A stretch of 64,000 bases of DNA, taken from Candidatus Dojkabacteria bacterium (lineage in GTDB: Bacteria; Patescibacteriota; Dojkabacteria; SC72; JAHDCA01). The notes under the pieces were generated by a model, which made no database searches, was not told the origin of the DNA, and saw only the letters and a program-made list of their open reading frames with translations. This document shows, piece after piece, positions 5,124-44,635 of this stretch. How positions within the stretch are numbered: the stretch's first letter is position 1; each line of letters begins with the position of its first letter. The DNA lies in NCBI GenBank assembly GCA_030583845.1, contig CP129478.1, forward strand, positions 715,686-779,685, in the 5' to 3' direction. Position numbers and translations under genes: made by a program.

Positions 5124-6611
5124 TTAATACTGGCAGTTATATACAATCGTAAGGTCTCCGAGTGTATAGCCAGTCTTTATCTTTGTAATAGAGTTGAGCG
5201 AGTAGTAATCGAAGATATCACCTTCATTCACACAGAATTCTTTCTCAGCAGGGTCAAACCGCTTGTCTACAAGTCCAGCATGGTGTGCGTAGCTATTCGG
5301 TACGGTCTTATGCTCTTCGGTTTTCGTGTACTCGGAGATGTATGGAATACCTTGAACTAACTCTTTGTAGGTGAGCTGTCTTAGTTCGCCACTTCTCTTC
5401 AAGGCCATCCCCTTGCCATCCACAAACTCATTCTTAAATGTATATTTCAGGTTCGGAAAGATAACTAGCTCGTTTGAAGTAAAAAAATCGGCAGCTGGTG
5501 TCATACCCTGAGCCACAACAGCGAGTGTAATAAGTGTTAGAATACCTCCCCGGATATCCTTGTACTTCTCAAGCGATCTGATAAGGAAGTTCAAGCCATC
5601 TCCAGCCAAGATGTATATGAAAGGCAAGAGATATAGCATGAACCTTTTATCGTTCCAATCATAGATCACAACCCAGAAGATTGTTGCAACAAGCAGTCCC
5701 GATAGGATATATCGATACTGCATCAGCTGCCTGCGATAGATGTAGTAGAAGATTCCAAGCAATCCAAGCAGGAGTATTGGCAATGTGTAGATATCAACAA
5801 GGCTAACTGAGTAGTAGAAAACAGAATCTACATTTGGTTTTAATAGGTCGAACTGCCCTACAGAGGTATAGAGTGGGTTTCCAAACTTGATCGCCTTATA
5901 GATCATTACAGGCAGCAATGGGAACAGGAACATAAATGTCTTTGACAATATTTCTGTTACACCTTCTTTCGTAAATGCGGCCAATGTCCTATGCTTCTTT
6001 CTACTCAGCAGCAGATCCAGGCAACTGATTGCGATCCATGCTGGGAAAACAAAAAACGCGAAACTTTGGAAAAGTGCCGAGACTCCTAGGAATAGGAATG
6101 ACTTGTTGGGCCTAGAGGTAGATATAAAGTAGACCGATGCTGCTAGAAATAGCACGGCATATAGATCTGCCAGTATATATTTTGAAAACTCTTGGAGCTC
6201 GAAGTTCAGAAAAAGAATTATCGATAGAAAAATGGCAAGCTTATAGTTCTTGGTCCAGAAATTAACAGAACGGTTAACCGTAAAAATAAGGCCGATAAAC
6301 GTGACAGCATTGATAAACGGAAGAAGCCACAGCAGATTCAAGTCCCACAGCGGTTTGATAAGCAGTGGCAGTCCTGAGCTTCGATACGATATTTTATCGT
6401 CTCTAAATTGGTATATTCCGTTGACGATCCAGTCATAGCTGTCAGGGGTGAAGTACTTGTACCTATTTAAGAAGTCACTGCTATCGGTAATCAAGTATGT
6501 CTTATAAAGAACTAGGATGAGAAATGTAATAAATAGGCCGAGAAGCAGGGCTTTCTCTATGCGCGTATCTACAATCTTGCTGCCCATTGTGCTGGTTTTA
6601 TTGGCACCCAT
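5124..6611 (-). CDS. Polytopic membrane glycosyltransferase, GT-C fold (ArnT/PMT-like), putative
   Basis: 495 aa with about 11 predicted transmembrane helices. An acidic first-loop motif (PDSYDWIVNG) resembles the DExxY motif of GT-C enzymes. It is adjacent to GT2 and GtrA genes. Confidence 0.5.
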   Translation of the reverse strand: MGANKTSTMGSKIVDTRIEKALLLGLFITFLILVLYKTYLITDSSDFLNRYKYFTPDSYDWIVNGIYQFRDDKISYRSSGLPLLIKPLWDLNLLWLLPFINAVTFIGLIFTVNRSVNFWTKNYKLAIFLSIILFLNFELQEFSKYILADLYAVLFLAASVYFISTSRPNKSFLFLGVSALFQSFAFFVFPAWIAISCLDLLLSRKKHRTLAAFTKEGVTEILSKTFMFLFPLLPVMIYKAIKFGNPLYTSVGQFDLLKPNVDSVFYYSVSLVDIYTLPILLLGLLGIFYYIYRRQLMQYRYILSGLLVATIFWVVIYDWNDKRFMLYLLPFIYILAGDGLNFLIRSLEKYKDIRGGILTLITLAVVAQGMTPAADFFTSNELVIFPNLKYTFKNEFVDGKGMALKRSGELRQLTYKELVQGIPYISEYTKTEEHKTVPNSYAHHAGLVDKRFDPAEKEFCVNEGDIFDYYSLNSITKIKTGYTLGDLTIVYNCQY

Positions 6612-9377: not shown

Positions 9378-11171
9378 GTGAGCTATATTGCTAGATTAAG
9401 CCGAAATGCAGTTCGATATTTGAGGGCGCATGGGTTGAAAGCAAGTGCGCGAAAATCTAAGTCGGTATTAGATAGGTGGCTGGGTGTAGGAACAGATATT
9501 GTTGATATAACTCAAAGTAAGTACAAAGATTGGGTAAATGAAGTAGAGTCGAAAAATACGCAGGTGGCTGCTGTTGCGCAAGATATAAAAATATCGATCC
9601 TTATGCCTGTGTATAATGTCTCACCCAATTACCTTGTTGAGGCTGTTGACTCGATAAAGACCCAGAGTTATACGAATTGGGAGCTATGTATTGTTGATGA
9701 TGCTTCGACGAATAGTGAGATCCCCCCACTCATCGAGAAACTAGAGGCAGAAGATGAAAGGGTAAAGGTGCAATTCTCTCCAGTGAATAGGCATATCTCC
9801 GAAACCACCAATACTGCGTTCGACCTGTCTACAGGTAGCTATCTGCTCCTGATGGACAATGATGACCTGATTGCTCCTGGAGCACTTGAAGAGCTTGTTG
9901 TGGGGATAGAGGCAAATCCGGGGGCGGATCTTATATATTTCGACGAAGATAAGTTAGATGTGTCCGGCGCCAGGGTAGAACCATTTTTCAAGCCTGGCCC
10001 ATCGCCAGAGTTCCTGCTATCGATGATGTATCCTACACACGCACTTTACAGCAGAGATATATTTGAGAAAGCAGGTAAGCTCAGGAAAGGATATGAAGGT
10101 AGTCAAGACTATGATCTCTGTCTTAGAGTCTTTGATCTTACAGACAAGATTTATCATATCCCCAAGATATTGTATCATTGGCGTAAAATCCCAGGGTCAA
10201 CTGCTGATAGTGTAGAGCATAAGCCTTATGTTATTGCTGCAGCAAAAAGGTCAATAACAGAGTCATTTGAAAGGAAAGGATATAAGGCAGAAGTTATTGG
10301 CGATAACTATCCCTTCAAAGCGAATATTGAGATAAAAGGCAATCCACAGGTTGACATTATAATCCCAACTAAAGATAAGAAGGGACTTCTGAGCAGATGT
10401 GTTGAGTCAATTATAGAAAAAAGCAGCTATGGGAATCTCAAAATCCATATTGTAGATAACAACTCAGAAGAAGAGGAGACGCTGGAATATTTGGAGGAGA
10501 TTCAAGAAAGGGATAACAGAGTAAAGGTAGCCGAATATAGCAAGCCGTTCAACTTCTCAGCGATAAATAACTGGGCTGTTAAGCAGTCAGTAGCTGACTA
10601 CATACTCTTCCTTAATAACGATACAGAAGTTATAGAGCCTCGTTGGATAGAAGAGATGTTAATGTGGGCTCAGATGGAAAAAATTGGCGCTGTTGGGGCA
10701 AAGCTGCTATTCCCGGATCATACAATCCAACATGCTGGGGTCATTCTAGGGCTCGGGCCGGATGTTAATGATGGTCATAGACCTGTTGCCGCACATGCTT
10801 TTTACAAAGAGAGAGAAGGAAGTCCTCGTGCATTTAATCAGATGAACCTAGTTCGAAACTATAGTGCAGTAACTGGTGCATGTATGATGATAAAACGCAC
10901 CAAATTCGATGAAGTAGGAGGATTTGATGAGGAGAACCTTAAGGTTAATTATAATGATGTTGACTTATGCCTTAAGCTTCTTCAGGCCGGCTACCGTAAT
11001 GTATATACAGCACATGCAAGGCTTTTCCACCATGAGTCTGCTTCTAGGATCAAGGAGCCTCCAAAAATGGAAACCGAATTCATGAGAGATAAGTGGAAAA
11101 AGTACATTGAAAACGACCCTTACTACAACCCTAATTTCGCTCGAAACACCGTGCATTCTTTCATAATATAG
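9378..11171 (+). CDS. Bifunctional glycosyltransferase with two tandem GT2 (GT-A) domains
   Basis: The first domain is ISILMPVYNVSP...CIVDDASTN. The second is VDIIIPTKDKKG...IHIVDNNSEE. Each has a DxD-type motif (LMDNDD, LNNDTE). Confidence 0.8.
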   Translation: MSYIARLSRNAVRYLRAHGLKASARKSKSVLDRWLGVGTDIVDITQSKYKDWVNEVESKNTQVAAVAQDIKISILMPVYNVSPNYLVEAVDSIKTQSYTNWELCIVDDASTNSEIPPLIEKLEAEDERVKVQFSPVNRHISETTNTAFDLSTGSYLLLMDNDDLIAPGALEELVVGIEANPGADLIYFDEDKLDVSGARVEPFFKPGPSPEFLLSMMYPTHALYSRDIFEKAGKLRKGYEGSQDYDLCLRVFDLTDKIYHIPKILYHWRKIPGSTADSVEHKPYVIAAAKRSITESFERKGYKAEVIGDNYPFKANIEIKGNPQVDIIIPTKDKKGLLSRCVESIIEKSSYGNLKIHIVDNNSEEEETLEYLEEIQERDNRVKVAEYSKPFNFSAINNWAVKQSVADYILFLNNDTEVIEPRWIEEMLMWAQMEKIGAVGAKLLFPDHTIQHAGVILGLGPDVNDGHRPVAAHAFYKEREGSPRAFNQMNLVRNYSAVTGACMMIKRTKFDEVGGFDEENLKVNYNDVDLCLKLLQAGYRNVYTAHARLFHHESASRIKEPPKMETEFMRDKWKKYIENDPYYNPNFARNTVHSFII

Positions 11172-11254: not shown

Positions 11255-13789
11255 ATGAAGAAGTTTTTTCTGCTTGGAGCCTTTGTTGCAACTTTATTCA
11301 CTATTGGAGCCTTAGATAATAAGTTCTCTCTTGATGTGTTAGCCTCGAGAGATGATATTGCTAGTAGGGCATCGGTAGAAGAAATGCTCTCGCGAGGAGA
11401 GTACTCCTCAAAAAGAGTAAGGGTTGTGTATAAAGATGATCTCGAGAAGCGTGGAGAGGACGGATTCTTCAAAGTAGTTTCAACAGTAACCGTACATGCA
11501 AACGGAAACGACTCTGACTACCTCGCAAACACCGCTCAACAGAAAGAAAATGTTGGCGATACGCTCCTTGAACTAATGGAAGACCCAGAAGTTGCCTATG
11601 CAGCTCCTGACTACTTAGGCAAAATTGCAGCATGGACAGATAACGGCACCCAAGCATATCCAGGTGACTATGACGTCACAGGCCCTACATTTAACCAGTG
11701 GTACTACAACTCCGGCAAAGTCAAAGAGATGTGGCATGATCAGGGATGTCCAGGTGGCGCATCGTGCGGTGGTGATTCATCGGTGGTAGTAGCTGTAATC
11801 GATACCGGCTTGGCATACGGTGCATTCGATGATGACACTGGTGACGGATTTACAGAGAATAACTTCCTAGCAGTTGCCGATGATGTTCCAAATCTATATG
11901 TGAATGCAGGCGAGACAGCAAGCAACGGGATGGATGATGATTGTAATGGTGTGATCGATGACGCACACGGCATGGACACCTTCGCTTTTGCAGAGCTTGA
12001 GATTACAGACATAGTAGCAACCGAAAGTCTCTCAGAACGAACATGCAACGGTATGACCCCTGTGGATTTTTCTGGTACATCGAATACTTTTAGGCGAAAG
12101 CCTGGTCATCCTGTCGATACATATGGTCACGGTACATTTGTGACCGGCTTGATCGCAGGAGGTGTAGATAATGGTGGGGATACAGTATCGCCTGCATTTA
12201 ATGTAAGTATAATGCCACTTGCTGCTTCAATAAATACTACCAACAACACCCATACCTCGCAGACATATGATGAGAGCGATTATCATCTTTTCTGGATGGC
12301 AGATGTACAAACGGCGATTGAGTACGCAGGTGTAAACGGTGCTGACGTTGTAAATATGAGTATCGGTGGATTTCCGTTTGACCAGGTGTTCCAGGATCAG
12401 ATTGATTATTGGTATGGAGAGGGTATGGTTTTTGTAGCTGCTTCTGGAAATGATTCGACATCAGGATCTATGCAGGCTGTGAGTTACCCAGCTGCATTCG
12501 ACAACGTTCTTGCCGTGGGTGCAGTTAATGCTGATAACACAAGGAGTGATTACTCAAATGGAGGTAGCAACCTCGACCTCGTCGCATATGTAGGTGAAGG
12601 AGGAGCCGCAGGTACGGCTGCATATCAGGAAACACTTACCTGTTACGGTTGTACTAGTGCCGGTGATGGAGGAGGTGTATTTACAGGCACAGCGACGGAT
12701 GTGTCTATAGGTACAAGCTTCGCTGCACCACAGGTGGCAGCGGCAGCGGCGATTATTAAGAGTAATAACCCAACTATGACAGCAAGTAATATTGAGTCTA
12801 TATTGTTGATGTCAGTCCAGGACATTACTAGCTATGGTGTCGGTAGAGATAATACCACGGGGTATGGGGTGTTAGATTTTCAGCTAGCTAACGACTACCA
12901 TTATTACATTGATTCTACTCTATACCAGAATGGTGGGAGGACTAGCAAACCAGTTGCATCAGCAGAGTTTAACTCAAGGTTTTATCAGGCTATAAAAGGA
13001 TTTTCCACTAACTTCGTGTATTTAAGGAGTACAGCTGACGGAGTATTTGATAATAGTGAGGCTGCAGAGGATTGGGTTCAAATTCCAGGGCAGACGCCTG
13101 AGCAGATAAATCTGGTTGCATATGATCCAGGGGATGGTTTAAAGCTATACATGACTGTAAAAGGTAATAGTGGAAGCATCTATGTTAGATATACTTCAAA
13201 TGGATCGACTTGGACAGATTGGACAGAAAATGGCGGCCTTACAAGCACAACGATTTCCTCGACAGTATTTAATTCAAGGTTGTTCCAAAGTATTCGCGGC
13301 ATTTCAACAAACAATATCTACGTAAGAAGTAGTGGTGATGGGTTATTTGACGGGTTGGCGGATGGATCTTCACCTGACACTTTGGAGAACTGGACTACCT
13401 TAACGGGACAGACACCATCTGTGCCAGAGATTGCTGCATTTGACGGCGAAATATATATGACTGTAAGAGGTAATAGTTCAAGTATATTTACGAGGAGTTC
13501 AAGCGATGGAGTCACTTGGGGCGATTGGACTCAGAACGGCGGATTTACTTCGGCAACCCCTTCTATGGTATCCTTTGATGGGAGGTTATTCCAGTCGGTT
13601 AAAGGCAATTCCACGAATTATCTGTTCATCCGTTACAGTAATGATGGCATAACTTGGTATCCTTGGGAGCGAAGGACTGGTACTTCTCCTCAACGTACCA
13701 ATATTTCCTATTTCTCTGTTACAGATGAATTGTTTGAAACAGTAATCGGCAATAGTGGGTACATATTCTTAAGGACTTACACCTACTAA
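11255..13789 (+). CDS. Secreted subtilisin-like serine protease (S8) with C-terminal six-bladed BNR/Asp-box beta-propeller
   Basis: Signal peptide MKKFFLLGAFVATLFTIGA. Catalytic triad contexts VVAVIDTGL (Asp), HGTFVTGLIAG (His) and GTSFAAPQVAAAAA (Ser). About six repeats of ~48 aa carry S-x-D-G-x-T-W Asp-boxes (SNGSTWTDW, SSDGVTWGDW, SNDGITWYPW). Confidence 0.85.
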   Translation: MKKFFLLGAFVATLFTIGALDNKFSLDVLASRDDIASRASVEEMLSRGEYSSKRVRVVYKDDLEKRGEDGFFKVVSTVTVHANGNDSDYLANTAQQKENVGDTLLELMEDPEVAYAAPDYLGKIAAWTDNGTQAYPGDYDVTGPTFNQWYYNSGKVKEMWHDQGCPGGASCGGDSSVVVAVIDTGLAYGAFDDDTGDGFTENNFLAVADDVPNLYVNAGETASNGMDDDCNGVIDDAHGMDTFAFAELEITDIVATESLSERTCNGMTPVDFSGTSNTFRRKPGHPVDTYGHGTFVTGLIAGGVDNGGDTVSPAFNVSIMPLAASINTTNNTHTSQTYDESDYHLFWMADVQTAIEYAGVNGADVVNMSIGGFPFDQVFQDQIDYWYGEGMVFVAASGNDSTSGSMQAVSYPAAFDNVLAVGAVNADNTRSDYSNGGSNLDLVAYVGEGGAAGTAAYQETLTCYGCTSAGDGGGVFTGTATDVSIGTSFAAPQVAAAAAIIKSNNPTMTASNIESILLMSVQDITSYGVGRDNTTGYGVLDFQLANDYHYYIDSTLYQNGGRTSKPVASAEFNSRFYQAIKGFSTNFVYLRSTADGVFDNSEAAEDWVQIPGQTPEQINLVAYDPGDGLKLYMTVKGNSGSIYVRYTSNGSTWTDWTENGGLTSTTISSTVFNSRLFQSIRGISTNNIYVRSSGDGLFDGLADGSSPDTLENWTTLTGQTPSVPEIAAFDGEIYMTVRGNSSSIFTRSSSDGVTWGDWTQNGGFTSATPSMVSFDGRLFQSVKGNSTNYLFIRYSNDGITWYPWERRTGTSPQRTNISYFSVTDELFETVIGNSGYIFLRTYTY

Positions 13790-34143: not shown

Positions 34144-34295
34144 CTTCTGAAATAGCTGTTGAATAAAGCGGAAAATGCTTATATAATTGCTACGACCATC
34201 CCGCCACGCCAGCTTATAATATGCTTAGTACATCTGTAAAGATTTTCTAAGGCGATAAGTTAGCGTAGCGGGACAGGCAAACCCCATTTGTATGT

Positions 34296-34368
34296 GGGCC
34301 AGTAGCTCAATTGGTAGAGCAAGCGACTCTTAATCGCTAGGTTCTGGGTTCGATTCCCAGCTGGCTCA
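34296..34368 (+). tRNA. tRNA-Lys (anticodon CUU)
   Basis: Cloverleaf read by hand. Acceptor stem GGGCCAG/CTGGCTC (one G-U pair). D-arm GCTCAATTGGTAGAGC. Anticodon stem AGCGA/TCGCT with loop CTCTTAA (U33, anticodon CTT, A37). T-arm CTGGGTTCGATTCCCAG. Discriminator A. No encoded CCA. Confidence 0.85.
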
Positions 34369-34369
34369 T

Positions 34370-34400
34370 TTTGTAATACCACCATTGGTGATATTACAAA
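34370..34400 (+). terminator. Strong hairpin immediately 3' of tRNA-Lys (9-bp perfect stem TTTGTAATA/TATTACAAA plus an inner imperfect stem); no U-tract
   Basis: Inverted repeat tttgtaataccaccattggtgatattacaaa. The only T-run (TTTT) precedes rather than follows the stem. The element may be a processing or termination structure. Confidence 0.35.
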
Positions 34401-34410
34401 ATGAATGAGT

Positions 34411-34455
34411 GAAATTGAACCCAAGGTTCGTGAGGACGCATCCCACGCATGCAAG
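34411..34455 (+). repeat. Copy 1 of a ~45-nt conserved motif containing the hairpin core GTGAGGA-CGCA-TCCCAC
   Basis: gaaattgaacccaaggttcgtgaggacgcatcccacgcatgcaag lies 25 nt upstream of the DKNYY gene start. It is near-identical to the copy at 35726..35770. Confidence 0.6.
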
Positions 34456-34479: not shown

Positions 34480-35685
34480 ATGAATATATTCTCAAATCTA
34501 TCCAAAAGAGTTTCTCGAACAAATGGGAAGATATCAAGTTTAGACAGAAGCCAGAAGCTACTAATCTTCGCCGCACTTTTCGTATTCATTGCATTGATAA
34601 TTACTCCTCTGGGAGATCTCTACTTTAATAAACCTGAGAAGCCACAAGAGAGTACTTCTATAAAGACGAAGAAAAGCTGCTCGGTCTACGAGACAGAATC
34701 GATCGTGCCGCAGGCAGATGGCCAAAGTGTAGAAAGTGAAACTATCGCTAAAGATTTTACACGCAAATATGCTCCATCCGACTGCCAATTTTCCCCGGAG
34801 ATTAGTATCGCATCGTTAGATACTGCTAGCTGTGAAAGGATTTCAACACACGTTATTGTAGATAAAAACAATGTATATAAATGGCAATATGATCCTGGTA
34901 GCTCGAATTACTCAACATATATTGTTGTAGAGGAAGCAGATGCGGAAAGCTTCACAAATCTGTATTGGAATTATTATAAGGATAATACAAATTTGTATTA
35001 CGATACTGGAGAGAACCTGAGCATAGTAGATCAAATCAACCTGGAGTCTGTAGAGGTTCTTTCTGCGAGTTATATTAAGGATAAAAACGGAGTCTATTAC
35101 GTCAGCTTCTCTGATGGTGAAGTAGATATTAGGCCAATACCTGGCTTTGATACTGCAACCTTTGCGGTTGTACAAAATCAGCACAATATACAGACATATT
35201 TTAAAGATAGGAATGGCGTATATTATTTCGGTTCGCAAGAAGCTGATCTTACACCTTCGGAAACAGTAATAAGTGAGGCGGATGTTGATACATTTATTGT
35301 TCTAAATACATATCTCTTGGCGAAAGATAAGAGCCATGTTTATTATGAGGGTATAGTAGTCCCAAGTGTAGATGCAGAGGCATTTGAAGAGCTTGGTGGC
35401 GGCTATTATAGGGATAGATCTAATGTTTATACAACAGGCATGAATAGGGCAGATTTTGAACCTCTCGACGATAGCGATCCGTGTACATTTGAATTGCTTG
35501 GTTATACTAGCGATTCAAATTGGTCGGGATATGCAAAAGACGAAAATCAAGTCTATTATCTCGGATCGGTAGTAGTCGGGGCTGACGCTGAAACTTTTCA
35601 AACAACACACTCCCAAGGGGTTTATGGAGGCTATGATAAAAACTACAGGTATCAGGGGAAGTATAGGCTGGAGGAACTTGAATAA
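34480..35685 (+). CDS. DKNYY-repeat family putative lipoprotein or secreted protein
   Basis: N-terminal transmembrane or signal helix. Seven D(K/R)N-x-VY(Y) repeats are spaced about 45 aa apart (DKNNVYKW, DKNGVYYV, DRNGVYYFG, DKSHVYYEG, DRSNVYTTG, DENQVYYLG, DKNYRYQG). Confidence 0.7.
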   Translation: MNIFSNLSKRVSRTNGKISSLDRSQKLLIFAALFVFIALIITPLGDLYFNKPEKPQESTSIKTKKSCSVYETESIVPQADGQSVESETIAKDFTRKYAPSDCQFSPEISIASLDTASCERISTHVIVDKNNVYKWQYDPGSSNYSTYIVVEEADAESFTNLYWNYYKDNTNLYYDTGENLSIVDQINLESVEVLSASYIKDKNGVYYVSFSDGEVDIRPIPGFDTATFAVVQNQHNIQTYFKDRNGVYYFGSQEADLTPSETVISEADVDTFIVLNTYLLAKDKSHVYYEGIVVPSVDAEAFEELGGGYYRDRSNVYTTGMNRADFEPLDDSDPCTFELLGYTSDSNWSGYAKDENQVYYLGSVVVGADAETFQTTHSQGVYGGYDKNYRYQGKYRLEELE

Positions 35686-35725: not shown

Positions 35726-35770
35726 CATTCAAAACCATCGGTTCGTGAGGATGCATCCCACAAATGTAAT
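35726..35770 (+). repeat. Copy 2 of the ~45-nt conserved motif (hairpin core GTGAGGA-TGCA-TCCCAC)
   Basis: cattcaaaaccatcggttcgtgaggatgcatcccacaaatgtaat lies 41 nt after the DKNYY stop and about 170 nt upstream of the Ldh_2 gene. Confidence 0.6.
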
Positions 35771-35937
35771 GAGTGGCAGATGTGACGTCATACTGAGTCG
35801 ATTGAGGTCTGCGAGCGCAGTGAGCAGATACCGAAATGAGACGTAGTGATTCTCAGCTTTCTATCTAACACACTGTCTTTGCCAAGCCAATTGGTTTATA
35901 ATTGGCTGGGATCCACATAAACTATTATCTCTAATCA

Positions 35938-38157: not shown

Positions 38158-38991
38158 CTACCGTGGTTTCTCTCCCGAAAACACTCCATACTCCAGCACA
38201 CCTTTCTCAATCAAAAACTTACTATTCCTCGCCGACACCGTATGTCCAAGCGATCCATAGGTCAGCCTAGCCTTCTCCAGCAAATAGATCACAGGCAACA
38301 TGATTGTCCCATATCGATAGTAGATATCTAAAGTCTTCTTTACCCCCTCATTCTTACTGTCAAACTTAACATCCTTAAACCCCACAGACTCCATATCCTC
38401 ATGGAATCTCTCCTTAAACGCCAGATTATCCAGCGCAAACCCATCCAGAAATTCTTTATAAACTTTCTCCTCTTTTACGGAGAGCTTCTCTTTGATCCTA
38501 TACGCATCCAGCACTGCTACCCTGCCTTTTGGTCGGAGTAGTCGGTACGCCTCCTTCAGGAAATCCCGCTTATCAATTGCATAGCAAACACTTTCTATGC
38601 CAAAAATCTTGTCGAACGAACCATCCTCAAATTTCGTGTCGGTGTAATCCCGTAACAGAAATTTAACTCTGTCTGCTGCTGGTGAACCAGCTGCATACTG
38701 TTCAGCAAGCGAAAGCTGTGAAGGTACTACAGTTATCCCAGTAACCTCTGTATCAAATCCCTCTGCGATCATCAATGAAGTCCCCCCGACACCGCACCCT
38801 GCATCAAGCACCTTGTCCCCATCCTTCACCTGCAAAGCCTTAATTACAACTCTACTCGTATTTAATGACGCATCTTTGTACTCGGTAATTCCTTCTTCCC
38901 AGATAGGATAGTGCAAATGGCGCACATTGCGATAGAATATATTCTTTGAGTAGTAATCGTTGATTGGATCTTCTGAGAGTCTTATCTCCAT
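38158..38991 (-). CDS. Class I SAM-dependent methyltransferase (CFA-synthase/CMAS-like family)
   Basis: Motif I VLDAGCGVGGTSLMIAE. The post-I motif is EVTGITV. The probable start is MEIRLSEDPINDYYSKN. The ORF-track start at 39063 lies further upstream. Confidence 0.7.
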   Translation of the reverse strand: MEIRLSEDPINDYYSKNIFYRNVRHLHYPIWEEGITEYKDASLNTSRVVIKALQVKDGDKVLDAGCGVGGTSLMIAEGFDTEVTGITVVPSQLSLAEQYAAGSPAADRVKFLLRDYTDTKFEDGSFDKIFGIESVCYAIDKRDFLKEAYRLLRPKGRVAVLDAYRIKEKLSVKEEKVYKEFLDGFALDNLAFKERFHEDMESVGFKDVKFDSKNEGVKKTLDIYYRYGTIMLPVIYLLEKARLTYGSLGHTVSARNSKFLIEKGVLEYGVFSGEKPR

Positions 38992-39167
38992 ATGAGATAT
39001 AGTACATTTTTTTAACAGAATTGTCGCCGTATCAGCTTCCTGACTGATGTCACCTATTATCACAGGTGGTGATTCTAGCCAGTCATATCAAATATTTATG
39101 CATAGTAAATCACTTAACGCACCCATACCTACCCCCTTCGCCCTTGATAGAGTAAAATAGTACTCAC

Positions 39168-40787
39168 ATGAACCAGAAACTCAAAATCTTCACAATCGTA
39201 ATGGCCCTTGGAACATTCGTGGTTGTCCTCGACAACACCATAATGAATGTCTCCATCCAGGCTCTCGTCCAAGACCTCAACACCACAGTAACTGGCGTCC
39301 AGACAGCGATCGCGTTAAACGCACTCATGATGGCGGCGTTTGTGCTTTTCGGCGGGAAGCTTGCCGACATTATCGGCATGAAGAAGACATTTATGACGGG
39401 TGTGCTGATCTATATCGCGGGAAGTCTCACTGCTTCATTTAGCAACAATCTGGGGGTATTCATACTTGGATGGTGTCTGATACAAGGGTTTGGGGCGGCG
39501 ATGATGCTGCCAAATGTGCAGACACTTATCCGTGCTGTACTGCATGGGGAGGCTAGGGCGAAGGCATATGGCGCAATGGCGGCAGTGAATGCAATCGCTG
39601 CAGCATTGGGGCCAGTGATCGGTGGCTTCTTGACGACATATTTCTCGTGGAGATGGGCATTCCGTATGGAGGTAGCTTTCCTGCTCTTCATCCTGGTGAT
39701 GAATCACTATATACCTAAAGATAAAGCGATTACGAAGAAGGTCGGTATCGATGGGTGGGGACTCGTACTTCAGGCTGGAGCCATGGTTTCGATTGTGCTT
39801 GGTATCTTGATGATCTCAGACTACGGTGCATTTATGGCAAAGCAGCCGGTGATTATTAACGGCATAAATATTACTGAAATGGGATTGGGGCTCTCGCCGG
39901 TCGTATGGCTGGTAGGTCTCGGCTTGGTGTTGCTAATGCTATTTATCCATGTAGAGAACAGCAAGCTTGAGAAAGGGAAGCCTTCGCTCGTGCATGTGGC
40001 GCTGTTCAAAATCCGTGATTTTGTGACAGGCTTGAAGGTAAGGAGCATGCAGGTATTTCTCGTAGCTGGAATACTCTTCTCGATGCCGCTTTTCTTGCAG
40101 GTGACTTTTGAGATATCGGCCTTTGAGACTGGCTTAGCTTTGTTACCGCTATCAATTAGCCTGGTGATCGGATCGTTTATCGGTGTGCGCATGGCCAAGA
40201 AATATCTGCCGAAAAATATTGTGCGGCTTGGAGCACTGATAGTGATGGCTGGATCGGTGATCTTAATGGCTCTGGTTACAAATAGTAGCGAGCCTGCAGA
40301 GATCGGGCTCGGCTTGATAGTATTTGGATTTGGCCTCGCGTTGATTGGCTCACAGATCGTGAACCTGATCCTCTCATCGGTCACGCCGAAGGAGACAGCC
40401 GAGGCATCTGGAATTACCAGCACTCTTGAGCAGCTTGGCAATTCTCTTGGTGTAGCAATCCTTGGATCGGTCTTAGTTGTAGCGCTTTCATTTTCACTAA
40501 CCCAGCAGCTAAATGCCGACACAAGCCTGCCTGCTGATATCCGTGAGAAAGCCCAGGCAGCTGTAAATGATGGGGTGGAGATCCTTTCAAATTCTCAAAT
40601 CGAAGAGCAGCTCTCTGATCTAGACCCAGAAGTTGAAGAGCAGGTACTGCAGATGTATGATAGCGCGCGCACAAATGCATTTAGGGTTACAATGTTGAGC
40701 GTGGGCTTTATTGGGCTATTGATGTTTATAACGGCAGCATCCTTGCCGGAGCGGAAGTTGGTTGAGGGGATGGAGAATTCGGCTTAG
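39168..40787 (+). CDS. MFS transporter, DHA2 (EmrB/QacA, 14-TMS) family
   Basis: 539 aa. The N-terminus MALGTFVVVLDNTIMNVSIQAL and motif A-like GKLADIIGMKK. It has 14 hydrophobic segments. Confidence 0.85.
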   Translation: MNQKLKIFTIVMALGTFVVVLDNTIMNVSIQALVQDLNTTVTGVQTAIALNALMMAAFVLFGGKLADIIGMKKTFMTGVLIYIAGSLTASFSNNLGVFILGWCLIQGFGAAMMLPNVQTLIRAVLHGEARAKAYGAMAAVNAIAAALGPVIGGFLTTYFSWRWAFRMEVAFLLFILVMNHYIPKDKAITKKVGIDGWGLVLQAGAMVSIVLGILMISDYGAFMAKQPVIINGINITEMGLGLSPVVWLVGLGLVLLMLFIHVENSKLEKGKPSLVHVALFKIRDFVTGLKVRSMQVFLVAGILFSMPLFLQVTFEISAFETGLALLPLSISLVIGSFIGVRMAKKYLPKNIVRLGALIVMAGSVILMALVTNSSEPAEIGLGLIVFGFGLALIGSQIVNLILSSVTPKETAEASGITSTLEQLGNSLGVAILGSVLVVALSFSLTQQLNADTSLPADIREKAQAAVNDGVEILSNSQIEEQLSDLDPEVEEQVLQMYDSARTNAFRVTMLSVGFIGLLMFITAASLPERKLVEGMENSA

Positions 40788-40801
40788 TTGCCTCGACTGC
40801 G

Positions 40802-41303
40802 ATGAATAGATTTACTGTAGTATTCCTACTAGACAAAAAGTATTCAAAGCTGGTGCTGCTCAAAAGAGCCTCCTGGATGAGCTTTGCCCCGAACCGATGC
40901 ACAGGGATTGGGGGGGAGCGTTGAGCCTGGTGAGGATTATCCTGAGGGTGCATTGAGAGAGCTTGAAGAGGAAACCGGAATAAAGAGTAGCGACATAGAA
41001 GAGTTCAGAATGATCGGCTTATTTACATTCAAGGGAGGAAAAGGCACTTACTGGGAGAATGGCTATGAGATCGGTTATTTCGATGCGACCTATTCACATG
41101 CCGATCTACCCCCTTGCAATGAAGGCGATATAAGCTGGGTTGGACTAGATCAACTCGATTCTCTTGATATTCTTGACGATACAAAGGCAGCGATTGAGCT
41201 TTTTAAAGAGGAAGTGTTTGGCAAGGTGATTGAGTCACCCTATGTTGGAGAGTTTCTTGAATCGGGAAGGGGTTGTACGGATACAATTCTGCTTGCTAAC
41301 TAG
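40802..41303 (+). pseudogene. Nudix hydrolase interrupted by a frameshift at a G7 homopolymer (40910..40916)
   Basis: Frame A from ATG 40802 encodes MNRFTVVFLLDKKYSKLVLLKRAS...GIGG and runs into TGA. The +1 frame after the G-run carries the Nudix box GSVEPGEDYPEGALRELEEETGI and the rest of the domain. Changing the run by one G joins the two frames. Confidence 0.6.
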
Positions 41304-42625
41304 TTAGTCGATGGGGCGAGTATAAGATTTGTGGTTGTTGGCACATCCGAAGTGTTGTACACAATCAAGTAGCTTCTCACTTGCGCTGGCAAATTGAAGG
41401 CTTCACCATAGCGTAATATTCTCACTCCTTCCGGTTGTACGATTACGACGATATTTTCCGGATCTGTTCCTGAATAATACAATCCCTGCAACCCGGCTAG
41501 ATCTACTATCCCGTTACGCTCTGCTGGCAAAGTGACTTGGTAAACTCCATCCGAACGCCATTCAGGAGAGAGCACAGGCATGATCACTGAAAACGGTTCC
41601 TCCAATGGTGGATACCACCACCTATCAGGCGATAGGTTTCTTTGCAGATGTAGTGCTATACGAATTGCATGCAACTCTTCTAAAGTGGTTGCGCTTTGAA
41701 ATATATGGTCTTCTGGTGCGAGCTCTTTCAGAGCTGCCAAAAGATAATTTACATAACCCATCTGATAGTAAGACTGAGCGAGGAATGGATATTGCAACAG
41801 CGTCTTAATATCAGGGATACCAGGTGTACCACGTGAGTAAGCAGCATCGACAAAGATTGTCCAGGATCCATAATCTGCATATGCGAAGCTGTCAGTACGC
41901 GGAACACATCCAGACTCGTTGCATACTGTGTTGTATAAGCCATCGTAGTATCTCAGGTAGTTCGGGCTTTTATTCAGGTAGTTCAATTCAACTTGCATCA
42001 TATATAGCATCGTCATAGCTGTGCTCCAAGACTCTTGGCCGTTTTCATTCCCTGCTGACATATCGTGGAATGGTGGTCCATATTGCATCAGGTATCTATG
42101 GCCTAGTTCGTGGACAAGGACATGCTGTATGATATCCCCCATGGCAAACTCGTTTAGCGACAAAGTGATGTCGGCTCCATATGCGCCAGGCTCGCCTTTG
42201 AAAGCTGCACTGCCGCTCACTGCTTGATCATGTAAGATGAAAATCTTGGTTGTGCCATCTTGGTCGGCAGTGAGAGCAAACCCCATACCTTTGAGCCAAC
42301 TATTAAAATGGTCTGCAGTCTCAGTTATTGTTGCAATCTGCTCGGCAGAAAGTATTGTCTGCTCAGTGCCTTCTGCGGATATTGGTATGTGAAGCTTGAA
42401 CTGCCCAGATGGGCTGAGAACCTCGGTGTAGTTAGGGTTGGCCTCAAACCAGTCAATAGCGGTTTGACTATAATGTGTTCGTTCAGTTGTTGACTGCTCG
42501 CCTAACTCTGTTGCCGGCTGATTCGGTGGCTTTTGTTGTGAGTCACTACAGCCAGCCAATGCAATACCCAGCGCTGCAGTAATTAGAAAACGGCCTTTAT
42601 TCATGTATTGAGGGAACTTAATCAA
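41300..42625 (-). CDS. Zinc metalloprotease lipoprotein (HExxH), family unassigned
   Basis: Lipobox signal ITAALGIALAGCSD. HExxH motif HVLVHELGHRY. 441 aa. It overlaps the 3' end of the Nudix gene by 4 nt on the opposite strand. Confidence 0.55.
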   Translation of the reverse strand: MIKFPQYMNKGRFLITAALGIALAGCSDSQQKPPNQPATELGEQSTTERTHYSQTAIDWFEANPNYTEVLSPSGQFKLHIPISAEGTEQTILSAEQIATITETADHFNSWLKGMGFALTADQDGTTKIFILHDQAVSGSAAFKGEPGAYGADITLSLNEFAMGDIIQHVLVHELGHRYLMQYGPPFHDMSAGNENGQESWSTAMTMLYMMQVELNYLNKSPNYLRYYDGLYNTVCNESGCVPRTDSFAYADYGSWTIFVDAAYSRGTPGIPDIKTLLQYPFLAQSYYQMGYVNYLLAALKELAPEDHIFQSATTLEELHAIRIALHLQRNLSPDRWWYPPLEEPFSVIMPVLSPEWRSDGVYQVTLPAERNGIVDLAGLQGLYYSGTDPENIVVIVQPEGVRILRYGEAFNLPAQVRSYLIVYNTSDVPTTTNLILAPSTN

Positions 42626-42683
42626 AGAAGAGTGAATTGTACACTATGGGACTATTGAGGGCAACTCTAATCAAGCACAAGCA

Positions 42684-42740
42684 GAAAATATTCTTTGAGT
42701 AGTAGTCGTAAATTGGATCTTTTTAAAGCCTTATCTTTAT
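42684..42740 (-). pseudogene. Relic fragment duplicating the first ~19 codons of the CFA-synthase-like methyltransferase gene (38932..38990)
   Basis: The minus-strand reading IRL*KDPIYDYYSKNIF compares with the intact gene's EIRLSEDPINDYYSKNIF. The 38-nt core is 35/38 identical and the whole ~57 nt about 80% identical. Confidence 0.5.
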
Positions 42741-42779
42741 AATATCTTACACAATCTGGAGATAGATATGTGATAACTG

Positions 42780-43547
42780 CTAATATTTGGCGAAATTTCG
42801 CATCGCTAAAGATGAGACACTCATCTCCGTCTCTTCGAGATACTTGTCTAGTCCGCTTCTGTTGATAAATTTACGAATCCTATCCTTAGCCTCCAACCCA
42901 GAGATTACAGAGGTTGTTTTAACTTCCAACCCACTTTCAAAATCCCTGATCATATCGATAGTAATCTCAAATTGTTCGTAGCTGTACAGTTTTCGGGTCT
43001 TCACTATTGTTACGAACTCCTTAAAGCTCATAAGGGTTAGAAGGCTATGAGTATTCTCATAATCGTCAACAGCAATCTCTTTTTCTAGAGTGGTTTCCTT
43101 TTTATATGGCTCTGCAAGTCGTTTCACACCGAGAGTCGTAATAATGCTGTCCTTATAACCAATCCGTTGCTCACGTATCCTTACTCCCTGTCCTTTGCCG
43201 GTCTCAAACCAGATACTCGTATGAGTACTATCGTTTATATCATTTGGCACATACCAGTGATCTGTTAACTCACCATTGTAGAGTAGTTTTGACCCTATCT
43301 TAATTAATATGTTTTCAATGGTTATGAGGTCAGTACATTTATAACGTAGCTCAATTGTAATCTCTTCGCTTACTGGTTCTTGATTTGCTACAAATCTATC
43401 AAGCTCTGACTGGTGGATTCTAACGTTATGTCCAAACTTTATAGCTGTTATGTCGCCATTCTTTATATAATTGCGTATAGTCTGCCAGTGAACCTTAAGG
43501 TACAGAGCGGCCTCCTTAATTGTGAGGAGCTTATCACTATTTATCAT
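42780..43547 (-). CDS. Fusion protein: N-terminal excisionase/MerR-type HTH DNA-binding domain plus C-terminal CYTH (CyaB/thiamine-triphosphatase-like) domain
   Basis: HTH: LTIKEAALYLKVHWQTIRNYIKNGDITAIKFGHNVRI. CYTH: EITIELRYK (ExExK-like start), basic RIRE, and the C-terminal acidic beta-strand motif FEITIDMIRDFESGLEVKT. Confidence 0.55.
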   Translation of the reverse strand: MINSDKLLTIKEAALYLKVHWQTIRNYIKNGDITAIKFGHNVRIHQSELDRFVANQEPVSEEITIELRYKCTDLITIENILIKIGSKLLYNGELTDHWYVPNDINDSTHTSIWFETGKGQGVRIREQRIGYKDSIITTLGVKRLAEPYKKETTLEKEIAVDDYENTHSLLTLMSFKEFVTIVKTRKLYSYEQFEITIDMIRDFESGLEVKTTSVISGLEAKDRIRKFINRSGLDKYLEETEMSVSSLAMRNFAKY

Positions 43548-43592
43548 ATATTTATTATATCCAATGATAAGTGATAATGCTATTTTGAGTGA

Positions 43593-44423
43593 ATGACGAA
43601 GAATCAGAAGCTACTAAAAGAGCTATATGGAATTACACCGAAAGACTTTAAGTCGTTAATCCCTAATGATCTGGTCCATTTAGTTTCGGAAATGCATATA
43701 GTCAAGAGATATGTGTCCCCAGGATATATCCCAGAGGGGCTTATTAAGGATAACCTGTATATGCATCTCGAGAGATTGATTATATTGGCCACAGAGATAT
43801 ATATTCCTCCTATGGATGGAGACACGCTAACGCGCACGCTCTGGGTTCATGATGTTGGTGAGATGGGGAAGGCTAACGATGTGATAAATGTCGAGAAGTC
43901 TGATAAACCCAATAGGAGGGTAAATGAAAAAATGTCGGAGGAAGTTGTCGCAAAGGGAATGTTGTCAGAAGAGGATTATAAGCTTCTTTTACAATTTAGA
44001 CAGGTATCCGATAGCTTTGAGAAGGAAGTCCCAGTCAATGTATCAAAGGAATTTGTCGTCGCTAAGGTTCTAGATTTTATAGAAAATCCAATTGACTTCT
44101 TCTATTGGTACACCAAATGGATAAGGAAAGGGAATGTCTATGATGGTATTACCCCTCCTAAAGTACTTTTTACATACACTCTATTGCAAACTAAGAAAGT
44201 ATGGAGTTCTATAAATGGATCAGATTCAATATCTGAAGAGATAAAAGTATACTGCCTGAGCCTTCTTTGCCTGCAGATCGATGGTATATTAAGGCTTTGG
44301 GATGAGGTACCTGAGAATCAAATACCTAGGCCTATGGCTGATGAGCTTAAGCAGATGAGTCACTTCCTAATGGAGCATGACAAGAGAATCCTGACGAGAG
44401 GATTTCTCTTCAGTACCCATTAA
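43593..44423 (+). CDS. HD-domain phosphohydrolase (YfbR-like 5'-deoxynucleotidase family), putative
   Basis: H...HD...D pattern: NLYMHLERLIILATEIY ... TLWVHDVGEMGKANDVINVEKSDK. 276 aa. It is divergent from the HTH-CYTH gene with a 45-nt spacer. Confidence 0.5.
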   Translation: MTKNQKLLKELYGITPKDFKSLIPNDLVHLVSEMHIVKRYVSPGYIPEGLIKDNLYMHLERLIILATEIYIPPMDGDTLTRTLWVHDVGEMGKANDVINVEKSDKPNRRVNEKMSEEVVAKGMLSEEDYKLLLQFRQVSDSFEKEVPVNVSKEFVVAKVLDFIENPIDFFYWYTKWIRKGNVYDGITPPKVLFTYTLLQTKKVWSSINGSDSISEEIKVYCLSLLCLQIDGILRLWDEVPENQIPRPMADELKQMSHFLMEHDKRILTRGFLFSTH

Positions 44424-44466
44424 ACTCACATTCGAGCTGCCGCCGCTTTTCAAATCACTCACAATA

Positions 44467-44475
44467 TGCTATACT
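44467..44475 (+). promoter_or_regulatory. Candidate extended -10 element (TGCTATACT) about 160 nt upstream of the DEAD-box helicase gene
   Basis: TGnTATACT match. The long leader is consistent with cold-shock-type helicase mRNAs. Confidence 0.25.
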
Positions 44476-44635
44476 CTGCTCCCTCTAAAAGGCTTAAAGA
44501 ATTTCCAAAAGATAAGTAATTAAGTGAGCCAGTTAGATTGGCTTGCGTCGTATAAAAGGTCTGCACTTCTATTCTGATTTGCCGCTATTACCATTTTGTC
44601 CGATGCAAATATATTAAATTTGTTCGGATAAAGTT

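Follow-up and report, generated by a model that had tools for sequence, protein, structure and literature searches.

We found that the window analysed here, a 64-kb stretch of DNA from a Candidatus Dojkabacteria MAG, carries a dead stump of the 5' end of a methyltransferase (MT) gene in addition to an intact MT gene, and we could confirm the stump as an ordinary recombination scar in a highly variable region. The fragment flanks an insert in direct orientation, an empty site exists in relatives, and the flanks differ in their history. With a probability of roughly 55%, the window arose from two haplotypes joined by recombination, with one illegitimate junction at MT position +58.

The repeated 5' end of the methyltransferase gene

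The initial annotation described a relic of the MT 5' end repeated 3.7 kb away from the gene. A repeat search of the window supported this, recovering a pair of direct repeats of 59 nt that are 83% identical (49/59 matching positions) and 3749 nt apart. The features of the locus are given below, with the comparison contigs labelled L001-L020.

38158-38991, minus strand: MT, intact gene of a class I SAM-dependent methyltransferase of 277 aa (CMAS/Methyltransf_11/25/31)
38934-38992, minus strand: R2, the live repeat copy, MT CDS positions -1 to +58, encoding MEIRLSEDPINDYYSKNIF
38993-39167, no strand: ig_d, the divergent MFS/MT intergenic region, not homologous to the canonical MT upstream of L004, L016 and L018
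39168-40787, plus strand: gene of an MFS_1 transporter, a 539-aa ORF called as 528 aa from 39201 (MFS_1 match 1e-43; GC 47-50%)
40802-41303, plus strand: Nudix hydrolase gene, frameshifted and split into two ORFs at a G7 run (40908-40916)
41300-42604, minus strand: gene of a 434-aa predicted lipoprotein, with HExxH and an LAGC lipobox recognised by eye
42605-42682, minus strand: spacer of 78 nt between R1 and the 434-aa gene, without MT homology
42683-42741, minus strand: R1, the dead stump of the MT 5' end, reading IKIRL*KDPIYDYYSKNIF
42742-42779, minus strand: ig_r, the canonical MT upstream region, homologous to the sequence directly 5' of intact MT in L004, L016 and L018
42780-43547, minus strand: gene of an HTH_17 and CYTH protein (HTH-CYTH) of 255 aa (94% aa identity with L004), which forms a two-gene accessory module with the next gene
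43593-44423, plus strand: gene of a 276-aa protein without any family match, partner of HTH-CYTH in the module

In the whole-window self-blastn, the repeat pair was the top non-self match (54 nt, 85%, E 5.9e-10), while the next non-palindromic direct repeat had an E-value of 5e-4. The degenerate 34-mer shared by the two copies, which had been reported to occur twice, was found exactly two times in the 64-kb window and not at all in 100 dinucleotide-preserving shuffles. The shuffles and the self-blastn E-value thus rule out a chance similarity, and the whole-window self-alignment proposed as a check places the match far above chance. As the earlier description had it, one copy lies at the start of the MT CDS and the other is intergenic with an in-frame stop, both on the same strand. 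The stump has lost its start codon (ATG to ATA) and gained a stop at codon 6 (TCA to TAA); 38 nt separate it from the HTH-CYTH stop (42780) and 78 nt from the start codon of the 434-aa gene (42604). The junction between R1 and the block of three genes enclosed by the repeats falls at 42682/42683, where the GC content changes in a step, with 37-39% on the module side and 45-50% on the block side.

The similarity to the MT does not extend further. A tblastn search of the window with the MT protein gave just two matches, its own gene and the relic (aa 1-19, 42740-42684, E 0.001), no other MT fragment was detected anywhere in the 64 kb by tblastn and blastn, and the 78 nt after R1 aligned to the MT and its downstream DNA with scores no better than those of shuffles. 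More degraded MT homology downstream of 42684, which the initial annotation had suggested looking for, is therefore absent from the spacer and from the rest of the window. We also consider an assembly artefact unlikely, as L001 and L002 have the window arrangement too (and L003 its R2 side), both L004 and L007 show the empty site, and R1 and R2 share no exact match longer than 17 nt.

The empty site and the accessory module in relatives

The contigs L004 and L007, which were assembled independently from two sequencing runs and share ~86% nt identity with the window, contain HTH-CYTH and, 59 nt further on, an intact 277-aa MT, with a single repeat copy and without the MFS/Nudix/protease block at this place. 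Positions 8-1951 of L004 align to 44609-42683 of the window and positions 1893-2717 to 38992-38168, so that the two alignments share exactly the 59 nt of L004 1893-1951, which match R1 as well as R2. Hence, without the block HTH-CYTH and the MT are direct neighbours, and the locus is polymorphic for the indel, as had been anticipated. The proposal that the block was inserted between an ancestral HTH-CYTH/MT pair holds for the adjacency of the two genes, but not for a deep ancestry of the pair, because the accessory module (about 42763-44445), present in L004-L007, is absent from L016, L018 and L019 and is much less diverged between clades than the MT. In these three contigs, the canonical MT upstream region directly abuts the DEAD-helicase side, showing that the module is itself an indel. 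A search of GTDB genomes with the HTH-CYTH protein found nothing, and the gene neighbourhoods in L008, L009-L014 and L020 added no information. A phage origin of the module was rejected, since no viral contigs were found and the PHROG matches of the window proteins were only generic ones to the HTH domain (excisionase/regulator families).

The content of the block agrees with the initial annotation in that the transporter belongs to the MFS family (putatively DHA2) and in the frameshifted Nudix gene, which has an intact 166-aa homologue spanning both ORFs in L017 and a 176-aa homologue in L004. The reading of the 434-aa protein as a metalloprotease is plausible from its motifs, and the protein has no Pfam match. 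An exhaustive search of 1.84 billion proteins gave 3 representatives of its orphan family, and a word-index search returned only the protein itself. In L015 a homologue of its gene adjoins the MT, in L017 another adjoins an MT relic, and thus a lipoprotein/MT haplotype exists independently of HTH-CYTH.

Divergence tiers and the allelic state of the stump

Compared with the other clade, the window shows three tiers of divergence at fourfold sites, with 0.66 in the backbone (533/813), 0.40-0.46 in the MT (48/104 and 41/103; 0.46 against L004) and 0.27 in the module (43/162). The MT differs from the module (Fisher test, p = 0.0014) and from the backbone (p = 2e-4 to 8e-7), and therefore the live R2/MT and the HTH-CYTH/R1 segment were not co-inherited. 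Alternatively, the tiers could result from a module swap by ordinary homologous recombination after a simple insertion, or the synonymous rate of the MT may simply be higher than that of the module. The window MT shares 93% aa identity with the MTs of both L004 and L016, and its homology to other haplotypes begins at the start codon and stops ~10 nt before the stop codon. Besides, the canonical upstream region ig_r, carrying an 18-nt deletion, precedes only the stump R1 in the window and not R2.

The stump has 5-6 private substitutions in 58 nt, a divergence similar to the neutral divergence of the adjacent intergenic DNA, and all its other states are found among clade-B MT alleles. Neither of the two private states of R2 is present in R1, and position 45 is the one site that groups R1 with R2. 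Judged from these states, R1 resembles the remnant of another MT allele more than a copy of R2, although 58 nt are too few to prove a different allele over a decayed R2 copy. Polarising R1, R2 and L004 with L015 (69% aa), L016 and L018 as outgroups gave few informative sites, which conflict, the outgroup being saturated. R1 is identical in L001, a strain ~99% identical to the window. The scar is already present in L001-L003, which are all the genomes available for the clade of the window, and they thus give no polarity for the event.

Proposed history and alternative scenarios

We hypothesize that the first haplotype had the order 276aa - HTH-CYTH - canonical upstream - MT, and that the allele from which R1 derives would thus have stood directly after the 276aa/HTH-CYTH module, as the MT still does in L004 and L007. 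The second haplotype would have had the order 434-aa lipoprotein - Nudix - MFS - different upstream - MT. The two would have been joined in the lineage of the window, in the variable region beside tRNA-Lys, by homology-facilitated illegitimate recombination (HFIR). The illegitimate junction of this event would connect MT position +58, within an AT-rich near-palindrome (AGAATATATTCT), with the site that lies 78 nt 5' of the 434-aa gene. For the second crossover, homologous recombination is the probable mode, either inside the MT, past it or at the far flank. The first MT would have been cut to 59 nt and afterwards have lost its ATG and gained the stop, while the second would have been kept intact and is now presumably read from the upstream region of the block. 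We infer the type of recombination, and which of the two haplotypes was resident and which incoming, from the product. A donor haplotype with lipoprotein, Nudix, MFS and MT but without HTH-CYTH was not found among the contigs and in the searches, and scans of JGI metagenomes and GTDB genomes with the degenerate R pattern gave no matches.

HFIR is known from the natural transformation of Acinetobacter, S. pneumoniae and P. stutzeri, and has been invoked where displaced T6SS effector/immunity and Rhs modules leave orphaned fragments of genes behind (PMC5361080, PMC3240628). Both HFIR and single-crossover integration have been documented to trap foreign DNA beside a homologous anchor (PMC3240628; PMC5361080). 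The window resembles HFIR scars in having a conserved gene as shared anchor, non-homologous cargo joined in or next to the anchor gene, a truncated orphan fragment beside an intact copy, and alternative cargo at the same place in related strains. It is unlike them in that the event was not observed and is known from its product alone, and in that its host is an uncultured Dojkabacteria (CPR) bacterium of unproven competence. Strings of 3' ends are typical of Rhs/CDI loci, whereas the window has a 59-nt 5' stump.

Less probable, but still credible, is an insertion in situ, in which a circular DNA with the three-gene block and a short MT 5' segment entered the resident MT by a Campbell-type single crossover, duplicating 59 nt of which the upstream copy decayed. 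The direct repeats flank the block exactly, L004 and L007 show the empty site, and the number of private changes in R1 fits a neutral decay over part of the history of the lineage. Single-crossover integration is known to duplicate part of a homologous locus, with duplications of 109-950 bp reported from experiments (PMC3240628). Campbell-type integrants likewise have direct repeats of a piece of a chromosomal gene bracketing inserted DNA, with a duplication of similar order in size, but the copies in the window are 17% diverged and the tier of the gene body differs from that of the upstream flank. An insertion in situ predicts that the MT body was co-inherited with HTH-CYTH, in conflict with the fourfold divergence from L004 of 0.46 for the MT against 0.27 for the module. 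The lack of both R2 private states in R1 also speaks against it, and a crossover within only ~59 nt of homology would be very inefficient.

It is distinctly unlikely that the locus once held two full MTs (HTH-CYTH - MT_a - lipoprotein ... MFS - MT_b) and that a deletion from +59 to the end of MT_a left R1, in line with the second option of the initial annotation, a deleted MT copy. The order of MT followed by lipoprotein has existed, as the 3' relic directly upstream of the 434-aa homologue in L017 shows, and internal deletions of the MT are seen in L018 and L019. On the other hand, no MT homology remains after R1, this scenario needs two events where one suffices, and no contig with two full MT copies was found among the relatives.

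We regard as very unlikely that the window arrangement is ancestral and that the L004 type lost the block by recombination between R1 and R2. Such a recombination between direct repeats would yield exactly the L004 structure, but it still requires an earlier creation of R1, and R1-like and R2-like states alternate along the L004 repeat, unlike the pattern of a single crossover. R1 and R2 share at most 17 identical nt in a row. Moreover, contigs of four different arrangements (L004, L016, L018/L019) have an intact MT behind the canonical upstream region and no trace of the block.

Barely credible is a functional cis element in two copies, either an operator for HTH-CYTH or an RNA leader co-regulating the MT and the 434-aa gene: R1 does lie 78 nt upstream of that gene and directly downstream of the gene of a DNA-binding protein, and is identical in L001, but the MT copy is normal coding sequence whose protein is conserved across all homologues, R1 has evolved at roughly the neutral rate, losing its ATG and gaining an in-frame stop, the element has no Rfam match and only two copies in 64 kb, and the relatives with one copy have no 434-aa gene at the site.

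The variable region beside tRNA-Lys

Two further features delimit the region on its other side.

34295-34369, plus strand: tRNA-Lys (CTT), its 3' end copied in boundary elements
35740-35861, no strand: boundary element of the variable region, ending in a degenerate copy of the tRNA-Lys 3' end

At the boundary element, the window becomes homologous to L004 again, and within it lie the contig breaks of L004, L017, L018 and L019. In several relatives, segments of the variable region are bounded by copies of the tRNA 3' end (GATTCCCAGCTGGCTCA), and the tRNA-Lys is the only Rfam match between 34000 and 45000. In this respect, the region is like tRNA-linked islands, with variable DNA beside a tRNA gene, but R1 and R2 are pieces of a CDS and not tRNA-derived att sites. 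No recombinase or integrase domain was found in the called genes of the region, and we reject an integrase island with R1 and R2 as attL/attR. A target-site duplication of a transposon or IS was likewise rejected, since the block contains only the MFS, Nudix and 434-aa genes, has no inverted-repeat pair at its ends, and is flanked by repeats of 59 nt at 83% identity.

The MT is broken in other lineages also, as a 3' relic in L017 and by an internal deletion in L018/L019. An unlikely, broader idea is that the interval from tRNA-Lys to the DEAD-box helicase would be an integrase-less cassette-exchange hotspot in Dojkabacteria. Short tRNA-Lys-derived repeats and the conserved MT CDS would act in it as recurrent recombination anchors, DNA would move between lineages with synonymously saturated backbones, and the MT stumps in at least three lineages (R1 and the two cases above) would be its footprints.

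R1 alone is a small pseudogene stump for which a function is unlikely; it presumably has no present one, none being evident. The spacer next to it holds a promoter-like TTGCCC-17-TACAAT (42664 to 42636). As unlikely as the hotspot is that R1 would have been co-opted into the upstream region of the 434-aa lipoprotein gene. R1 is of value as a well-resolved and dated mark of gene flow in an uncultured member of the CPR. Overall, plasticity in this ~1-Mb Dojkabacteria genome is seen beside a tRNA gene, where gene blocks move between lineages with differences at about two thirds of their fourfold sites. For the annotation of this genome, it should be considered that the HTH-CYTH/MT operon of the relatives is broken here, that the MT stands under a different upstream region, and that the Nudix gene is frameshifted.

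A single direct-repeat pair at the methyltransferase locus

The genes and repeats considered here lie as follows, in window positions.

Features of the locus
34295-34369: tRNA-Lys(CTT), bounding the variable region
38158-38991, minus strand: methyltransferase (MT) gene, 277 aa, class I SAM methyltransferase (CMAS, Methyltransf_11/25/31)
38934-38992, minus strand: R2, the live repeat copy, MT positions -1 to +58
Between R2 and R1: MFS_1 transporter gene
40802-41303: Nudix gene, frameshifted and split at a G7 run (40908-40916)
41300-42604: 434-aa gene with HExxH motif and lipobox
42683-42741, same strand as R2: R1, the dead repeat copy, 38 nt past the HTH-CYTH stop and 78 nt before the ATG of the 434-aa gene
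42780-43547: HTH-CYTH gene, named for its HTH_17 and CYTH domains
43593-44423: 276-aa gene, adjoining the HTH-CYTH gene

A repeat search of the window recovered R1 and R2 as a single direct-repeat pair of 59 nt, with 83% identity and a spacing of 3749 nt. The initial annotation had claimed that the 5' end of the MT gene is duplicated on either side of the MFS, Nudix and 434-aa genes (hereafter the block), and the duplication is real: the repeat search, shuffling and self-blastn bore out every detail that could be checked. Chance similarity is contradicted by the 34-mer pattern of that annotation, found exactly twice in the window and in none of 100 dinucleotide-preserving shuffles, and by the rank of the pair as top non-self match in the whole-window self-blastn (54 nt, 85%, E 5.9e-10).

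The similarity between R1 and R2 starts at -1 and stops after +58, and R1 has ATA in place of the start codon and TAA at codon 6. Compared with the MT and its downstream DNA, the 78 nt past R1 score no higher than shuffles do, and no other MT fragment was found in the 64-kb window, so that R1 is a clean stump and does not terminate a longer, decayed copy. R1 carries 5-6 private changes in 58 nt, its remaining states all being present among the alleles of clade B (the other clade, which includes contigs L004, L016, L018 and L019), and neither of the two private states of R2 is present in R1. R1 is probably not a copy of R2 but the remaining stump of another MT allele. Nothing suggests a function for R1, since its decay is close to the neutral rate and it has no Rfam match; within the block, past R1, there is a promoter-like site for the 434-aa gene.

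The 434-aa protein, a predicted lipoprotein, has no Pfam match, and a search of 1.84 billion clustered proteins gave just 3 representatives of its family: one beside an intact MT (L015) and two beside an MT relic (R1 in the window, and L017). The HTH-CYTH protein has just 7 homologues in 5.8 billion clusters. The Nudix stretch is 100% identical in L002, and the same truncated 139-aa call occurs in L001; an intact 166-aa homologue in L017 covers both window ORFs, and in the 176-aa homologue from L004 the N-terminal half is aberrant.

Arrangement of the locus in relatives

The window arrangement and an identical R1 are also present in three contigs that Logan holds for other samples (L001-L003, 98-100% identical, forming clade A with the window), so the structure is not an accident of assembly. 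L004 and L007, which come from two sequencing runs, carry the closest HTH-CYTH homologue (94% aa), and in both contigs an intact 277-aa MT begins 59 nt past the HTH-CYTH gene. In DNA alignments, L004 8-1951 pairs with window 44609-42683 (through R1) and L004 1893-2717 with window 38992-38168, the two alignments overlapping by exactly the 59-nt repeat. The window arrangement is thus not found everywhere, and this adjacency without the block, in both L004 and L007, supports the earlier interpretation of a past duplication, insertion or illegitimate recombination, in which the block may have been inserted into an ancestral HTH-CYTH/MT pair. As a refinement, this "ancestral pair" would itself be a recently exchanged module beside the MT.

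Contigs L016, L018 and L019 group with L004 in one clade (91-99% identity mutually and to L004 in overlaps) and have only 65-73% identity to the window backbone genes. The 276-aa/HTH-CYTH pair occurs in L004-L007 but not in L016, L018 or L019, where the DEAD-helicase intergenic region directly adjoins the sequence upstream of the MT. The pair thus constitutes an accessory module of two genes (window ~42763-44445). Contigs L005 and L006 end right at its HTH-CYTH edge. Between the DEAD-helicase and 276-aa genes, the window, L004 and L016 share an identical 35-nt stretch (44467-44501, TGCTATACTCTGCTCCCTCTAAAAGGCTTAAAGAA), from which L018 differs at 1 position, against only ~75% identity in the flanks. 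A conserved promoter or leader is one possible role for this stretch, and an anchor for recombination at the module edge is another.

L004, L016 and L018 share a conserved stretch of 40-60 nt (...TTGTGTAAGATATATTATG) 5' of the intact MT. This canonical upstream sequence sits before R1 in the window and not before R2, which instead follows an unrelated intergenic region between the divergent MFS and MT genes. Ahead of R1, the intergenic DNA is ~28% different from L004, close to the module value. The genes downstream of the MT differ in every contig type, and window-L004 homology picks up again only at 35759-35858.

Genes downstream of the MT
Window: 233aa / glyoxalase / Ldh_2
L004: 173aa / Nudix / 431aa
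L016: Exo_endo_phos / NUDIX / 147aa
L018: 54aa / 103aa / methylase

The MT has been inactivated independently in relatives: in L018 and L019 the gene (9814-10246 in each) has an internal deletion of ~390 nt that leaves 74-aa and 81-aa ORFs, and L017 retains a degraded 3' relic only (1492-1637), directly upstream of a 40%-identical 434-aa homologue. L015 is more distant (MT 69% aa); its MT is intact, and immediately upstream of it lies a 434-aa homologue of 32% identity.

Divergence and base composition

Divergence between the window and the other clade was taken as raw difference counts at fourfold-degenerate sites.

Fourfold-site differences, window versus other clade
Eight backbone genes: 533/813 (0.66, near saturation)
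MT versus L004: 48/104 (0.46)
MT versus L016: 41/103 (0.40)
Module (276-aa and HTH-CYTH genes): 43/162 (0.27)

On these counts, the MT differs from the module (p = 0.0014 with L004, 0.03 with L016) and from the backbone (p = 2e-4 to 8e-7), and the module differs from the backbone (p = 6e-20). The low module divergence (27% against 66% at backbone fourfold sites) points to a recent inter-lineage transfer. The module has a GC content of 37-39% and the block one of 45-50%, with the step exactly at the R1 junction. Together with the private states of R1 and R2, the divergence tiers, which are raw counts on small numbers, and the GC step suggest separate histories for the live MT and the HTH-CYTH+R1 segment.

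Proposed origin of the repeat pair

The best reading is that two haplotypes of the variable region were joined. One would have carried the module, the canonical upstream sequence and an MT; the other, the lipoprotein, Nudix and MFS genes, the other upstream sequence and an MT. An illegitimate join would have occurred at MT +58, within the near-palindrome AGAATATATTCT, and the second crossover would have been homologous. The window locus has the same geometry as homology-facilitated illegitimate recombination (HFIR), which has been proposed for the displacement of T6SS/Rhs modules leaving orphaned gene pieces (PMC5361080). Either haplotype could have been the resident one, because all the available clade A genomes (L001-L003) carry the scar.

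A serious rival is a Campbell-type single crossover, shown experimentally to duplicate part of a homologous locus around an insert (PMC3240628). It would yield the same product as the HFIR-type join, but it predicts an MT body co-inherited with the module, against which the divergence tiers argue. An intermediate with two MT copies, one later deleted, is possible and would fit the MT-then-lipoprotein order in L017, but finds no support in the window itself. A secondary deletion of the block in the L004 lineage is less parsimonious. Under the preferred joining of two haplotypes, the repeat pair is a recombination scar in a plastic region, an ordinary kind of feature whose value is mostly as evidence for inter-lineage DNA exchange in a CPR bacterium.

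The tRNA-Lys boundary and other repeats

Copies of the tRNA-Lys 3' end (GATTCCCAGCTGGCTCA) terminate an element of ~120 nt that, in L004, L017, L018 and L019, is found repeatedly bordering single-gene segments. A degenerate form lies at window 35740-35861, and several contigs break within the element.

tRNA-Lys-related sites in relatives
L004: ~5513-5583
L017: 1-32, 5003-5024, 5085-5106, 5430-5464
L018: 12182-12213
L019: 11018-11039, 11365-11386

These copies look like att-type residues left by DNA integrating serially at the tRNA gene, but the variable region of the window contains no integrase. A 39-nt near-perfect palindrome immediately after the tRNA-Lys (34366-34404) is probably its terminator. 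The DKNYY-domain gene (34480-35685) is flanked by a 30-nt direct repeat of 87% identity (34425-34454 and 35740-35769), the second copy of which belongs to the boundary element. Whole-window self-comparison also recovered a 100-nt direct repeat of 70% identity at 13146-13242 and 13452-13548 (E 5e-4).
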